Part shown: positions 32,301-38,300 of the stretch, one piece after another
Position numbering within the stretch: position 1 is the stretch's first letter
How the letters are laid out: every line of letters starts with the position of its first letter
From: Escherichia coli
Lineage (GTDB): Bacteria; Pseudomonadota; Gammaproteobacteria; Enterobacterales; Enterobacteriaceae
NCBI RefSeq assembly: GCF_045037415.1
Contig: NZ_CP173438.1
Length of the DNA stretch: 64,000 nucleotides
Strand: one strand, 5' to 3'
Position numbers: made by a program

Positions 32301-35300
32301 ACTTAAGGCCTGAACAGCGGCGCGCTTATCGTTAAGGTAAGCGCGTTTTTTTACCCGCCAGGACAAGACTATGATAGCGTTGCCCTTATAGACGATCACA
32401 TTATCGTCCACTCCAAATTTGCGCAACTACTGTAGAGTGGTGTACTCCACAGCTTCTTTTAGGATCTCAACTTCCATTGTTTTCTTACCGAGCAAGCACT
32501 GCAACTCTTTTATTTATTTGTAGTGGTCAACAAAAACTGTAAGCGTCAACGGAGCACCGTATTGACGCTTATTTATTGGTGAGTACTACGTTCCATGGCA
32601 GGAGTTCGTCAACTCGGTTGGAAGGCCATTCCGGCAGTACGCTCAGGATATGGCGCAGATACGCTTCCGGATCGATACCGTTCAGACGGCAGGTGCCGAT
32701 CAGCCCGTACAACAGTGCTCCACGCTCGCCGCCGTGATCGCTGCCAAAGAACATAAAGATGATATGACCTTTATATACTCACTATAGCATTGGTGGGATA
32801 TTCCAGAGGAGGTCATCATGCATTCGGAAAATATTGCGGCTTACGTCGGGCTGGATGTGCATAAAGAAACGTTGGCGGTTGCTATTGCTGCACCTGAACG
32901 GCTTGGCGAAGTTCGTTATTATGGTACGATTAACAACGAAGCCCAGGCTGTACGTCGATTATTTCAGAAATTGCAGGGACTTTACGGAAACATTCTTTCC
33001 TGCTATGAGGCTGGCCCCTGTGGTTTTGGGCTATATCATCAACTCACAGCGATGAATATAAAATGCCAGGTTATTGCCCCTTCCCGCATACCAAAATCAC
33101 CGACAGACAGAATCAAAAATGATCATCGGGACGCAATTTCTCTCGCCAGGTTACTGCGGGCTGGAGAACTTACCCCTGTCTGGATCCCTGACCTGACTCA
33201 TGAAGCTATGCGGGATCTAATCAGAGCCCGTGCAGCAGCTAAACGAGACAGCAGAGTTGCCCGACAGCGAATTCTGAGCATGCTATTGCGAACAGACAAA
33301 CATTATGCAGGAAAGCACTGGACAGGAAAACATCGAACCTGGTTAGCTAATCAATCATTTAGTCAGCCATCTCAACAGATTGCTTTTCAACACTATTGTC
33401 AGAGTCTGGAGCAGATTGAAGATCGCATACTTCAACTCGACCAGGAAATATCTCGCCTGTTACCTGAGTGGTCTCTGTGCAATCTGGTCTGCCAGTTGCA
33501 GGCTCTTAAAGGTGTTGGTCAGCTAATTGCAATAACTCTGGTTGCTGAACTGGGTGATTTTTCGCGATTTTCCAATCCCAAACAGCTCATGGCTTTTCTG
33601 GGACTGGTGCCAGGTGAATATTCCAGTGGAAACAGTATTCGTCCCAGAGGAATAACAAAAGTTGGAAACAGCGAACTGAGACGTCTGCTTTACGAAGCCG
33701 CCTGGTCTTATCGTACACCTGCAAAAGTTGGGGCATGGCTTATATATTACCGACCGGACTCTGTAACACAATATTCCAAAGATATTGCATGGAAAGCTCA
33801 ACAACGATTGTGTTCTCGTTACCGAAGTCTGACAGCAAAAGGGAAAAAATCACAAGTAGCCATTACGGCGGTGGCTCGTGAGTTGACTGGATTTATGTGG
33901 GATATTGCACTTGCTGCCCAATCATCATTCAGTCAGCAGAAGCAAAATTAAACCCTGAAGCAGTCAGACACGGAATGAGTGATCCTCGTAAAAGAATTCA
34001 GGGAAGCCAGAATGCGCTAATACCTGCACGTAGAAAGAGGCCAGCTCACTGCGTAAATCGTCATGGGGCTAAAATCCCCGAATAAGAGTTTGTAAAATCC
34101 AAGATACAGTCTGACTGTTTCAGGTTCTTTAATCCGCGATATAACGAAGCTCCCGGAGCTGCGTAAGGTCTTTTTGGGCTTAATATTTGACAAAGGTCAT
34201 AAGAGTTTTTCTTTCCGAGACAGACTGCACGAAGCGCTCTTTCCGCAGCATTATTATCCGCCTCCGCCAGACCGTCATCACTGTAATAACAGAGGGCATC
34301 CCACTGATTCAGTACATAGCTGAACGCTTCGCCCAGTCTGGATTTTTTCGACAGCGTACCATTCTTCTCCACCATCCATTCATGCAGCGACGTCAGTAAC
34401 ACTTTGCTTCGCTGCTGCCTGACGGCAAGACGCTCTGACTCCGGTAATCCCCGTATTTCATCCTCGATGGCGTACAGTTCACTGATTCGCTTCAGGGCTT
34501 CTTCTGCCGTCGCACTTTTGCTGCTGATGTATACATCGTGGATTTTTCGCCGGGCATGGGCCCAGCACGCAACTTCTGTCAGTGCACCACCTTCACGTTC
34601 TGCACTGAACAACCTGTCGTAACCTGTGAACGCATCCGCCTGCAGGATACCCCGGAAGGGGCGGAGGTGTTGCTCCGGGTGTTTCCCCTGCCGGTTCGGC
34701 GAGTACGCGAACCAGACCGCTGGAGGAGATGACGAACCCACATTGCGATCATCCCGGACATACGTCCAGATACGCCCTGTTTTCGCCTTTTTCTGACCCG
34801 GTGCCAGTACCTTTACCGGTGTGTCATCAGTGTGAACCTTGCGGGTGTTCATTACATAACGGTACAGGGCATCATTCACCGGTGTCATTAACTGGCAGCA
34901 CGCGTCAACCCAGTTGGAGAGTAAGGCCCGGCTCAGTTCGACACCCTGGCGGGCAAAGATTTCACTCTGACGATACAGTGGCAGATGTTCGCAGTATTTT
35001 CCCGTTAACACGCGGGCAAGTAATCCGGGGCCCGCGATACCACGCTCTATCGGGCGGGACGGCGCCGGTGCTTCAACAATACAGTCACATTTTGTACAGG
35101 CTTTTTTTACCCGTTCTGTGCGGATCACTTTCAGGGCACTGCTCACCAGTTCCAGCTGTTCAGCGCTGACTTCCCCCAGATAATCCAGCTCACCGCCACA
35201 CTCCGGGCAACAGCTTTCTTCTGGCTCCAGGCGGTGTATTTCACGGGGAAGGTGTGCCGGTAACGGACGACGATGGCGCGACTGTCGCAACTGGCGGGGA

Positions 35301-38300
35301 ACCTGAGGATCGTCTTCCCGCCCACTGTAACGATCGCTGTCCTGTTCACGTTGTTTCAGCAGAGCCTCAGCCAGTTCAACTTCACGACGCAGTTTTTCAG
35401 AACGGGTACCGAACAGCATCCGGCGCAGTTTTTCTATCTGAGCCCGCAGATGTTCTATTTCCCGTTCATCTTCTTCGATCTTTTCTTCGGCACGTGTCAG
35501 TGCAGAGCGCAGGAAGGCTTCCGTCTCTTCAACCAGACTCAGTTGCTGGTCTTTCTGACGGAGGGCTTCAGCCTGCTCAGAGAGCAACCTTTCCAGCTCT
35601 GCGATGCGAATGAGGTATTTCTGACTCATGACCGTTTTTATAATGCGGTCAGGAGTTTTTTACAACATTGTCAGTGAGTTACGGCTGGATGTTTTTGGCT
35701 GACGCCAGTCCAGCTTATCGAGGAGCATTGCCAGTTGCGAGCGGGTAATGGATACCTTGCCGTCACGTACCGCAGGCCAGATAAACTGGCCTTCCTCCAG
35801 GCGTTTGGTGAACAGGCACAGACCATCAGCATCAGCCCAAAGAATTTTGACGGTGTCACCCCGTCGGCCACGGAAGATAAACAGGTGACCGGAGAAGGGA
35901 TTATCATTCAGCACATGTTGTACCTGTTCTCCCAGTCCGTTGAAGGATTTACGCATATCGGTAACGCCGGCAACGAGCCAGATACGGGTACCTGATGGGA
36001 GTGAGATCATCTTCCCCTCCCGGTCAGTTCACGGATCAACACTGTGAGCAGCTCTGGCGATGGATTTTCCAGCGTCATGTTACCGTGACGGAATTCCACC
36101 TTGCAGGAACTGGCACTGACTCTGGTCTGAGTGGAAGTGGATAAAGACGGCGCAATGGCCGCCACAGGTTCTTTCTGCTCATCCGGCGTTATTTCTACAG
36201 GTAATAATTCAACGCCAGTGTCAGAAGAGGTCGTTACCGGAAGACGCCGCGAAACACGCCCTTCGTTCTGCCAGAGCCTGAGCCATTTGAAAATAACATT
36301 ATCATTGACGCCATTTTCACGTGCAATCTGTGCAACACAAGCTCCAGGTTGTGATGCCAGTTCCACCATACGAAGTTTGAATTCATTCGAATAGTTTTTA
36401 CGAGGTTCTTTTCGCCAGTCCTGTAATTCCATACTTAGATGTCCGTCTATATCAGATGGGCGTCTAAGTTACCAATTCTCGTCTGATGGCTACATACGGC
36501 GGTCAGTTTACGCTTACCAAAAACTGGTCACAATTTCAGATTTTTTCCAGTATCTATTTTCCGATTCGTTCGGCGGTAATCCACCGTTATATTCATGAGG
36601 CCGGAGTGCACTATAAAAGTGTATGCGTAAACCGACTGCTGTATGTAGCCATTAAGCCTGTATTGGTAACATAGGTACCCACCTTTTCAACAAGTGGACA
36701 CCTGTTATAGAACAAAAAACATTATCAGCAGAACCCCGCAGGTCATTTTCAAATGAGTTTAAACTTCAAATGGTTAAACTGGCTTTACAACCAAGGGATT
36801 CTGTTGCCTGTATTGCCCGGGAGCACGATATCAATGATAATCTTCTGTTCAAATGGCTCAGGCTCTGGCTGATCAAAGGGCGTATATCACGGCGTCTTCC
36901 GGTAACGAACTCTTCTGGCATTGGCGTTGAATTATTACCTGTGGAGATGACGCTGGATGAGCGGCCTTACCCCGTTTTTACGCGAGGTAATTATGAAGAT
37001 CAATGACTAGCCGTCGAACCGTGTGCATGAACTGCTGTACTGAAACTTCTCAGCTGTAAAATAATCCTTACGCTACGTACTTCTCGGAGCGCTTACGATT
37101 AATCAGATGCAGTCCTAACTGGAAGAAAGAAAAATGGAGAAAATAAGAGGAATTAATATCCTCCACGTTCCTGAAATCCTGGAGGATATTAATGTCATCA
37201 AAATATTAGCGAACGATAATCCCTAACAAAATACCCAGTGCGCCAAAGTCAGCATCACTGAAGGTGGTGTTAGCAAAACCAATATCACCCAGCACAGGCA
37301 ATAAGAATACTGACAGGAAGGTAATAAGCAAGCCTTGCGCAAAGGCACCCAAAATCGCACCACGACGTCCACCCGTTGCATTACCGAATACCCCTGCAGC
37401 TGCACCTACGAAGAAGTGCGGCACCACACCAGGAATAATCACGATCATGTTCAGCAGATACAACGTGAACATACCGATTAAACCTGCAGCAAAGCTACTC
37501 AGGAAACCAACCAGTACAGCGTTAGGTGCGTAAGGGAAGATGACCGGGCAATCGAGAGCAGGTCTGGCATTCGGAACCAGCTTGTCTGAAATACCTTTGA
37601 ATGCCGGGACAATCTCCGCAATCACCATGCGCACACCCTGCAGAATGATGTACACGCCAGCTGCGAAGGTAATGGATTGCATGATAGAGAACATGAACCA
37701 GTTTTTACCACCGCTAAGCTCTTTCACCGCATCTGCACCCGCAAACAGGCACGTCAGCAGGAAAATTATGATCATGGTAAAAGAGATAGCAACCGGCGTG
37801 TCGCGCAAGAACAGCAGACTTTTCGGCACATTCATGTCTTCAGTCGAGTGCTCTTTATTACCAAACTTGCTGCCGATGAAACCGGCCAATACATAAGATA
37901 ATGTTGAGAAGTGGCCGATGGCAACGTCATCAGAACCGGTCACTTTCTTCATGTACGGATGAGCAATAGCCGGGAAAAAGACCATTGCCACGCCAACAAC
38001 CAAAGAGCCAACGGCTATAAGCGTAATGCCGGTCATGCCTGCTGTTGCCAGAATTACCGCTACCATCATCGACATAAACAACGCCCGCAGCATGAGAATG
38101 GACAATAGACATTCGGGAGGATTTTTTCATATAAATCTCCTTGCTCATTTTTAATGAACGAAGGAGGAGACGACGGAGAAATCACCTTCCTGAACGGGAT
38201 CAAGCTACCACTGTCGGATCCGCCACACTCCCTGAACCATGTTTTTTAAGGGTCATACCACCAAAAGGTCGACGGCTGCTTCCTTCGCTATATTAGACTG

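Follow-up and report, generated by a model that had tools for sequence, protein, structure and literature searches.

Nested insertion of ISEc45 in the tnpC gene of ISEc23 in Escherichia coli, and a predicted guide RNA directed at conserved IS66 transposase codons

The DNA analysed here, referred to as the window, is a stretch of 64,000 nucleotides (nt) from Escherichia coli contig NZ_CP173438.1. It contains a stack of insertion sequences (IS) in which ISEc45, an IS1111-type member of the IS110 family, lies within the transposase gene tnpC of ISEc23, a member of the IS66 family, and ISEc23 in turn splits the terminal repeat of an IS3-family remnant (Table 1). Both elements are already catalogued and carry these names in RefSeq. 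Over the 4801 bases at 32300-37100 the identity to E. coli IPCEC48 and IPCEC42 is 100%, and the window coordinates map one-to-one onto IPCEC48 4379552-4443551. The explanation that best accounts for the whole, and which we consider highly probable, is that an old scar of IS remnants received ISEc23 and that ISEc45 then integrated recently, in an RNA-guided manner, at a site within tnpC.

Table 1. Features of the nested region, in window coordinates. Sub-features of ISEc45 follow the entry for the element.
Feature	Position	Strand	Description and basis
IS2-like (IS3 family) orfA remnant	32430-32519	-	Truncated at 32519 by the IS3-type end
IS3-family (ISEc52-like) terminal inverted repeat, outer 19 bp	32520-32538	-	TGTAGTGGTCAACAAAAACT; left copy of the ISEc23 duplication at its final 8 bp (32531-32538)
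ISEc23 right end	32539-32756	-	Terminal repeat and 3' end of tnpC, orphan reading frame 32569-32754 (MFFGSDHGG...); 100% identical to positions 1-218 of intact ISEc23
ISEc45 (IS1111 type, IS110 family)	32757-34203	+	1447 bp; natural empty sites, NF033542, RefSeq name
ISEc45 left extension	32757-32763	+	AGATGAT (7 bp)
ISEc45 left subterminal repeat	32764-32774	+	ATGACCTTTAT
ISEc45 tnp	32818-33951	+	377 residues
ISEc45 3' non-coding region	33952-34203	+	
Predicted seek/bridge RNA core	33953-34124	+	Outer stem 33953-33969 with 34109-34124; two internal loops
Predicted target-binding loop, 5' strand	33990-33998	+	AAAAGAAUU; complementary to right-flank top strand A[G/A]TT[T/C]TT
Predicted target-binding loop, 3' strand	34027-34034	+	CACGUAGA; equals the last five left-flank top-strand bases plus AG; complementary to the bottom strand
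Putative donor-binding loop, 3' strand	34082-34088	+	AUAAGAG; equals right-end ATAAG plus left-end AG, the predicted circle junction
ISEc45 right subterminal repeat	34190-34200	+	ACAAAGGTCAT
ISEc45 right extension	34201-34203	+	AAG (3 bp)
ISEc23 left part	34204-36517	-	5' portion of tnpC 34205-35629, tnpB 35660-36010, tnpA 36007-36432, terminal repeat; NCBIfam, RefSeq
Right copy of 8-bp target duplication	36518-36525	.	CAAAAACT; single copy in natural empty sites
IS3-family right end, inner part	36526-36620	-	Last ~31 OrfB residues; reading frame and peptide comparison
Second, diverged IS66-family left-end remnant	36621-37006	+	Terminal repeat and truncated tnpA-like reading frame 36770-37006; truncates the IS3 remnant

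The element at 32539-36517 had been assigned to the IS66 family in a first-pass annotation of the window, and this was borne out by the sequence reading, the open reading frames (ORFs) and the terminal repeats. As in other IS66 elements, tnpA, tnpB and tnpC are consecutive, the terminal repeats are imperfect (they start GTAAGCGT and are equal at 20/26 positions) and the insertion is flanked by an 8-bp duplication, the perfect direct repeat reported earlier. Against NCBIfam models the restored TnpC scored 452 bits (NF033517, cut-off 180), TnpB 121 bits (NF033819, cut-off 50) and TnpA 83 bits (NF047595, cut-off 74). Without ISEc45 the window sequence is 100% identical to the copy in strain EC958, which RefSeq places in the ISEc23 family, and 99.8% identical to an intact second copy of 2532 bp (locus L002) that has a different 8-bp duplication, GAAAGAGC. 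The orphan ORF for the TnpC C-terminus exists as annotated, and the ORF for the 5' portion of tnpC runs on into ISEc45 down to 34061. As the insertion cuts off the last 61 residues of TnpC, this copy of ISEc23 is probably disabled.

The element inside tnpC had been described as an IS110-family element of 1451 bp at 32754-34204. Its presence was confirmed while its limits had to be moved. Intact ISEc23 (L002) reads ...GCCAAAGAACATAAAGTTTTTCTTTCC... across this region, the split point being ...GAACATAA^AGTTTTT... (here and below a caret marks the junction), encoding ...GKKNFMFFGSDHGG..., and thus the insert is 1447 bp long. A 2-nt ambiguity in the placement of its boundaries was settled by a diverged pair of ISEc43-type sites, the occupied one reading ACACGT^AGATGAT...CATAAG^AATTTTT and the empty one (L017) ACACGTAATTTTT, so that ISEc45 is AGATGAT...CATAAG at 32757-34203. 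The left boundary thereby moves by 3 nt and the right one by 1 nt. With the former limits, removal of the element takes out 4 bp too many and joins the two halves of tnpC in the wrong frame (GKKNCSLAA...), whereas removal of 32757-34203 makes them contiguous and yields a sequence that is 100.000% identical, across 8241 bp, to this locus of EC958, a strain of sequence type 131 (ST131). The insertion leaves no target duplication. The split 'IS66 family transposase' pseudogenes on either side of ISEc45 are one gene, and the ends of ISEc45 are now exact to the nucleotide.

The order of events is demonstrated by natural intermediates, from which the layers can also be dated. The empty scar without ISEc23 (32400-32538 joined to 36526-36720) was found at a coverage of at least 80% in 952 genomes, several of them at 100% identity; ISEc23 at the identical site, as judged by its left junction, was found in 296 genomes, among them the ST131 strains EC958 and JJ1886; ISEc45 inside ISEc23 at this locus was found in only 2, IPCEC48 and IPCEC42. 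In the empty sites 32520-32538 runs straight into 36526 onward, joining both halves of the IS3-family terminal repeat that the IS66 insertion had been said to split. The succession we propose is that the old scar, comprising the IS2-like orfA fragment, the ISEc52-like IS3 right end and an IS66-type left end, would have been struck by ISEc23, which would have entered the IS3 terminal repeat and made the 8-bp duplication, giving the state common to ST131 strains. Much later, ISEc45 would have integrated into that ISEc23, antisense to tnpC, within the codons GKKN^FMFF and with no duplication. The three layers, their nesting order and their standing as separate datable events, all proposed in the first-pass annotation, hold, and both the empty IS3 end and the ISEc23 site without ISEc45 exist in other genomes. 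Taken alone, the nest is ordinary IS archaeology, but it is unusually well documented by natural intermediates.

The IS1111 type has been defined by subterminal repeats of ~11-13 bp, extensions of 7 bp on the left and 3 bp on the right, and a C-terminal motif, with a transposase typically of 330-350 residues (Siddiquee et al., PMC11187229). ISEc45 has both extensions, and its 11-bp subterminal inverted repeats are equal at 10/11 positions. Its non-coding sequence lies mostly downstream of tnp (252 nt vs 61 nt upstream), the C-terminal motif GLVPGEYSSG fits GL-P----S(t)G, and insertion is specific for site and orientation with no target duplication. The transposase matches NF033542, 'IS110 family RNA-guided transposase', with 278.9 bits (cut-off 140); PF01548 and PF02371, in keeping with a RuvC-like DEDD domain at the N-terminus and a Transposase_20 domain at the C-terminus, are recorded for a protein (P0002) that is 99% identical to it, and 12 relatives all have the DEDD residues D13, E64, D102 and D105. 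ISEc45 is listed in the supplement of Durrant et al. 2024 as an IS1111-group element with a predicted bridge RNA in its right end (PMC11208160). When the ends are joined in silico, ...TTGACAAAGGTCATAAG^AGATGATATGACC... (predicted circle junction GGTCATAAG^AGATGATATG), a -35 sequence TTGACA and a -10 sequence TATGAC are brought together with a 17-nt spacer, and the TTGACA is kept in most relatives. A transposase gene 99% identical to that of ISEc45 was also seen on a contig (L024) of a metagenome-assembled genome labelled Collinsella sp. (actinobacterial); the contig is most likely E. coli DNA misplaced there during binning.

Target site and predicted guide RNA of ISEc45

A 69-nt probe detected the left junction of ISEc45 in 865 E. 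coli records. In a sample of 60 evenly spaced over these records, 59 junctions had IS66-type flanks of varied sequence, and the examples that were fetched, which lay in ISEc23, ISEc43, ISEc22 and unnamed IS66 relatives, agreed in the nucleotide used and in their antisense orientation. The transposase has relatives with 46-87% identity in Salmonella, Vibrio, Nitrosomonas, Trabulsiella, Photorhabdus, Sphingomonadales, Rhodobacteraceae, Cupriavidus, Planctomycetota and Acidobacteria (for one relative, P0007, the DNA is available only as a short contig). Every relative with a readable flank occupies the same tnpC site, G(R/K)KN^[W/Y/F]-[L/M]-F, with the junction one base into the codon after Asn. 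In all cases seen of a target with AA where the element has AG, AG is retained at the left junction and AA in the right flank. The insertion in the window is programmed and not incidental, this site being the normal, orientation-specific target of ISEc45 and of its whole clade.

Three full-length copies of ISEc45 in E. coli lie outside IS66 elements, on plasmid pUPEC957C-2 (L012, TAACTGGT^AGTCTTTTT), in a DUF4942 gene of strain 219 (L071, CATCTTCGT^AGTCCTCTT) and in a glycosyltransferase gene of strain HSP425 (L072, TCAACATAT^AGTTCTTTT). These three sites keep ..GT^AGT[T/C][C/T]T with a T-rich right flank, in common with the guides described below and with the cognate site.

Two further IS66-family tnpC sequences in the window touch on the same site. 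A C-terminal fragment at 45488-45744 carries an unoccupied ISEc45-type site, CCGAAGAACAGGA^AGTTTTTACGACCC, at ~45700-45720, in the same orientation as the occupied site and with a comparable guide match. In an ISEc8-like element at 6244-8440, tnpC (7018-8403) has an in-frame deletion of 153 bp (51 residues) which takes out ...DNNxAER...GRKN(Y) and is bounded by two CCTGT microhomologies; its right breakpoint is 1-5 nt from the ISEc45 insertion point, so that the ISEc45 target lacks its right half. This deleted form is common, with several copies in many E. coli genomes. The idea that the deletion is a footprint of ISEc45 was rejected, slippage between the CCTGT microhomologies being simpler, and the deleted form may be the product of chance slippage or one that escapes ISEc45.

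The 3' non-coding region of ISEc45 folds better than shuffled sequence (z=-2.98). The consensus from 20 relatives consists of an outer stem and two internal loops, the first flanked by helices P1-P3 and the second by P4-P5. Over the five named helices, 88.6% of cells in the 20 relatives are paired vs 78.2% in shuffles and 31-54% with slid partners. Nine pairs are changed on both sides, and the covariation score is 0.351 vs 0.171, with 0/500 shuffles as high. Covariation of the RNA structure is thus demonstrated, and the same holds for covariation between the predicted guides and their targets. The 5' strand of the target-binding loop tracks the right flank in relatives, with A opposite T and G opposite C at position +5. 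The 3' guide of ISEc45, CACGU, matches the ISEc43-type flank CACGT, and the relatives' 3' guides CAGCC, CAGGU, CAACC and CAGGC stand beside flanks ending.AGCC,.AGGT, TAACC and CAGGA. The guide-target score is 185 with each element's own target vs 167.8 +/- 3.0 with permuted targets, and 0/20000 permutations reach 185. On the wider, tentative reading given further below, the guide variants CC, GU and UA would correspond to the Trp, Tyr and Phe codons of G(R/K)KN-[W/Y/F]-L/M-F.

A variant of ISEc45 in E. coli 2013C-3033 (L003) has an RNA that differs almost only by a change of CACGU to CAUAU (CAUAUAG), and it stands beside a CATAA flank of the ISEc23 type. Judged from these sequences, the 2-nt guide change looks like a natural reprogramming. 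The L003 element also contains an internal stop and has been cut short by IS600.

In the second loop, the putative donor-binding strand is nearly invariant in the 20 relatives. There is one covarying case, a Cupriavidus relative (L055), in which the right end CATGAG and the segment AUGAGAG change together. The partner strand of this loop (34055-34064) can pair with left-end ATG[A/G]T, in a register that is ambiguous. A further candidate of 7 nt outside both loops, GUUCUUU (34124-34130), which is complementary to AAAGAAC in the target, was rejected as a chance match as it is not conserved in relatives. From the comparisons made here it is very likely that the 3' non-coding region encodes a structured guide RNA aimed at conserved codons of IS66 tnpC.

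Several points weigh against this reading. All of the evidence for the guide RNA and for the mechanism is comparative, and in a permissive scan of 31500-38000 no Rfam 15 family matched the ISEc45 non-coding region. The transposase, with 377 residues (367-395 in relatives), is longer than the 330-350 residues that are typical of, though not defining for, the IS1111 type. Helix P4 is weak in gammaproteobacterial members, where 74% of cells are paired and two central pairs are broken; support for it is good among the alphaproteobacteria and planctomycetes. The donor-loop strand for the left end fits no single consistent register: several are possible (AUCGU or GUCAU against ATGAT), and none holds across the relatives. 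The left guide CACGU has 2 mismatches and 1 wobble against CATAA of ISEc23, directly beside the insertion point, and a 12-nt motif derived from the guides, with up to 3 mismatches, occurs 149 times in the 64-kb window, as expected by chance. Given this chance-level number of matches, the guide match as read here cannot alone explain the choice of ISEc23, and position-specific tolerance or further determinants must exist.

Mechanism, donor and alternative explanations

The mechanism outlined here is drawn by analogy with tested family members (PMC11187229, PMC11208160); it is from the family that the circle, the promoter at its junction, the complex of RNA and transposase and the chemistry of strand exchange are taken. 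ISEc45 would most likely excise as a circle in which the joined ends form a promoter. The RNA of the non-coding region would be transcribed and bound as a guide by the DEDD transposase. One loop would pair with both strands of tnpC, using 33990-33998 for the right flank and 34027-34034 for the left flank, while the second loop (34082-34088) would pair with the joined ends of ISEc45 itself, and recombination would then insert the element without a duplication. A second, 100% identical ISEc45 is present within ISEc43 at IPCEC48 69969-71415. The flanking sequence there (CACGT^AA) is a perfect match to the guide, and this copy is the likely donor.

A pre-formed ISEc23::ISEc45 composite, carried for example by a plasmid, could instead have brought ISEc45 to the locus through homologous recombination or gene conversion, with no new transposition. 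Composites 99.8-100% identical to 32539-36517 do occur at other chromosomal and plasmid sites in ~125 genomes, an identical composite could have converted the locus without marking the sequence, and the imperfect match of the guide to ISEc23 also fits such an origin. However, the sole other full ISEc45 found in the IPCEC48 chromosome is the one in ISEc43, whose flanks diverge from ISEc23 within 1-3 nt, and the flanks in the window are pure ISEc23, 100% identical to EC958. Recombination is on this evidence an unlikely source of the insertion, if one that deserves to be kept in mind. The whole composites, 99.4-100% identical and spread over many unrelated sites in the ~125 genomes, would reflect either mobilisation in trans despite the broken tnpC or repeated strikes of ISEc45 on ISEc23.

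Integration of ISEc45 at a programmed site can also be set against two explanations that dispense with a guide. If ISEc45 had little target preference its nesting in tnpC would be coincidental, and the three insertions in non-IS66 sites might be read in this way. Those off-target sites nevertheless resemble the guides, in the E. coli sample 59 of 60 junctions share one nucleotide position and one orientation across diverged IS66 tnpC genes, and the same site is used across phyla by every relative with readable flanks. Coincidental nesting is already effectively refuted by the sampled junctions and the relatives' flanks, and the chance of it is vanishingly small. The site might alternatively be read by the transposase protein alone, with the 3' non-coding region serving, for example, in regulation of expression or in binding of the ends. 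The invariant target positions (GAA.A... A[G/A]TT) could be read by a protein, and counts of guide matches do not set ISEc23 apart from chance sites. Against this, both strands of the target loop change with the flank while transposase identity ranges over 46-99%, and the RNA of the non-coding region is essential and programmable in other IS1111 and IS110 members (PMC11187229). Reading of the site by protein alone is thus considered very improbable, and an RNA-guided integration of ISEc45 is preferred.

Outer layers of the nest and the surrounding island

The nest had been described as having three levels. The layers stand but the depth is greater, as at least 5 IS-derived pieces are present, with the IS2-like orfA fragment and the second IS66-type end adjoining the IS3 remnant. 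For the orfA fragment, the minus-strand peptide IKELQCLLGKKTMEVEILKEAVEYTTLQ matches the NCBIfam model PRK09413, 'IS2 repressor TnpA', at positions 80-104 of 121 (E=1.8e-8), and a longer copy of the fragment is present at the same chromosomal locus in strain E143.

The split terminal repeat had been likened to that of IS911 in the first-pass annotation. Assignment of the remnant to the IS3 family follows from its terminal repeat, which starts with TG (TGTAGTGG...), and from the C-terminus of an rve-type OrfB on the inner side. The minus strand of 36526-36620 encodes 24 residues identical to the C-terminus of an IS3-family ORF at window 20004-20246, and that ORF matches NF033516 at positions 305-368 of 369; by itself the 34-residue peptide of the remnant gave no NCBIfam match. 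At the nucleotide level the remnant is 77% identical (E=3e-16) to the IS3-family end at window 20010-20106, and its nearest annotated relative in the same genome is the element at 20004-20788, placed by RefSeq in the ISEc52 family. This frameshifted ISEc52-family element directly adjoins a copy of IS600 (window 20004-22011), which is another IS-IS junction in the island.

The tail of the IS3 remnant had been drawn as far as 36632. It ends at ~36620, and from 36621 the sequence is the terminal repeat of a second IS66-family element. This remnant (GTATGCGTAAACC...) is 73% identical to the left end of ISEc23 over 343 bp, its terminal repeat is equal to that of ISEc23 at 28/32 positions, and its peptide (36770-37006) matches IS66 TnpA models (E=3e-18). 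A sub-threshold match to the Rfam family AfaR (36610-36699, minus strand, model positions 26-119/234, E=5.7e-5, 42.5 bits vs a gathering threshold of 100) overlaps this terminal repeat. It probably reflects IS66-end-like sequence in the AfaR model and not an AfaR gene.

The window lies in the leuX-island region, which holds the fec operon and several IS remnants and adjoins a tRNA-Leu gene. A truncated tyrosine integrase gene lies beside the tRNA-Leu gene (window 47097-47829), indicating that the IS-rich stretch is within a tRNA-associated genomic island.

Significance and comparison with known systems

The elements are catalogued and the class of mechanism was published in 2024; what appears to be new is the assignment of an IS66-directed guide and the specialisation of a whole clade. 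IS1111-type elements specialised on another mobile element were reportedly described by Partridge and Hall in 2003, the target being the non-coding end of a transposon, whereas the target of ISEc45 is the coding sequence of a transposase. No account of IS66 tnpC as the target of ISEc45, or of any other element of the IS1111 type, emerged from full-text literature searches, which returned only resistome surveys.

A wider reading is offered tentatively, as one that is plausible but somewhat short of probable. The ISEc45 clade would be an old, multi-phylum lineage of RNA-guided IS1111-type elements that have become specialised parasites of IS66 elements, with a guide that tracks invariant TnpC codons. 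Insertion would truncate the host transposase, the parasite could ride on IS66 copies mobilised in trans, and IS66 elements without the site, such as the 153-bp-deleted ISEc8 form, may be escape variants. The nest itself would be a natural and precisely dated integration by an RNA-guided recombinase within the ST131 lineage, with the exact empty site and a probable donor at hand, and as such would be useful for the study of these recombinases in the wild. The guide-target covariation, the apparent 2-nt reprogramming and the three off-target insertions point to guide positions that tolerate mismatches, which matters for the engineering of bridge and seek recombinases.

ISEc45 resembles ISEc11, ISKpn4, ISPst6 and ISPa11 (PMC11187229) in its subterminal repeats, its 7-bp and 3-bp extensions and its long downstream non-coding region. 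As in the seekRNAs of those elements, both target strands are matched, the complement of the top strand is placed 5' and the matches overlap at the insertion point. It differs from them in its target, IS66 tnpC instead of a short linear site, attC sites or REP (repetitive extragenic palindromic) sequences, and in the length of its transposase (377 instead of 330-350 residues). The conserved RNA of ISEc45, with ~170 nt between the strands of the outer stem, is also longer than the reported seekRNAs of 70-100 nt and may correspond to the 'long' seekRNA form.

The predicted RNA is like the IS621 bridge RNA (PMC11208160) in having two internal loops, one with guides for both target strands and the other with a segment identical to the donor junction, and a 2-nt position (AG) is common to donor and target in both systems. 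The IS621 RNA lies in the left end, in contrast to that of ISEc45 in the right end. A further difference shows at targets with AA, where ISEc45 acts as if AG...AAG had been inserted and no duplication arises.

The closest parallel in choice of target is ISEc21, an IS110-family element whose seekRNA targets a conserved region of the IS3-family transposase gene (PMC11187229). Both are DEDD elements that take as target a conserved coding stretch in the transposase gene of another IS family, with specific orientation and no duplication. In ISEc21 the non-coding region is upstream and the bottom-strand match comes first, whereas ISEc45, being of the IS1111 type, has it downstream with the complement of the top strand first. 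The ISEc21 target covers the second D of the IS3 DDE motif, that of ISEc45 the IS66 tnpC codons G(R/K)KN^[W/Y/F]LF. The ISEc21 seekRNA is described in PMC11187229; the guide of ISEc45 is predicted here from comparison of sequences. ISEc45 would be a second clear example, next to that of ISEc21 and IS3, in which an IS110-family lineage takes aim at conserved codons in the catalytic region of a different IS family, which suggests that hyperparasitism may be a strategy that recurs among insertion sequences.

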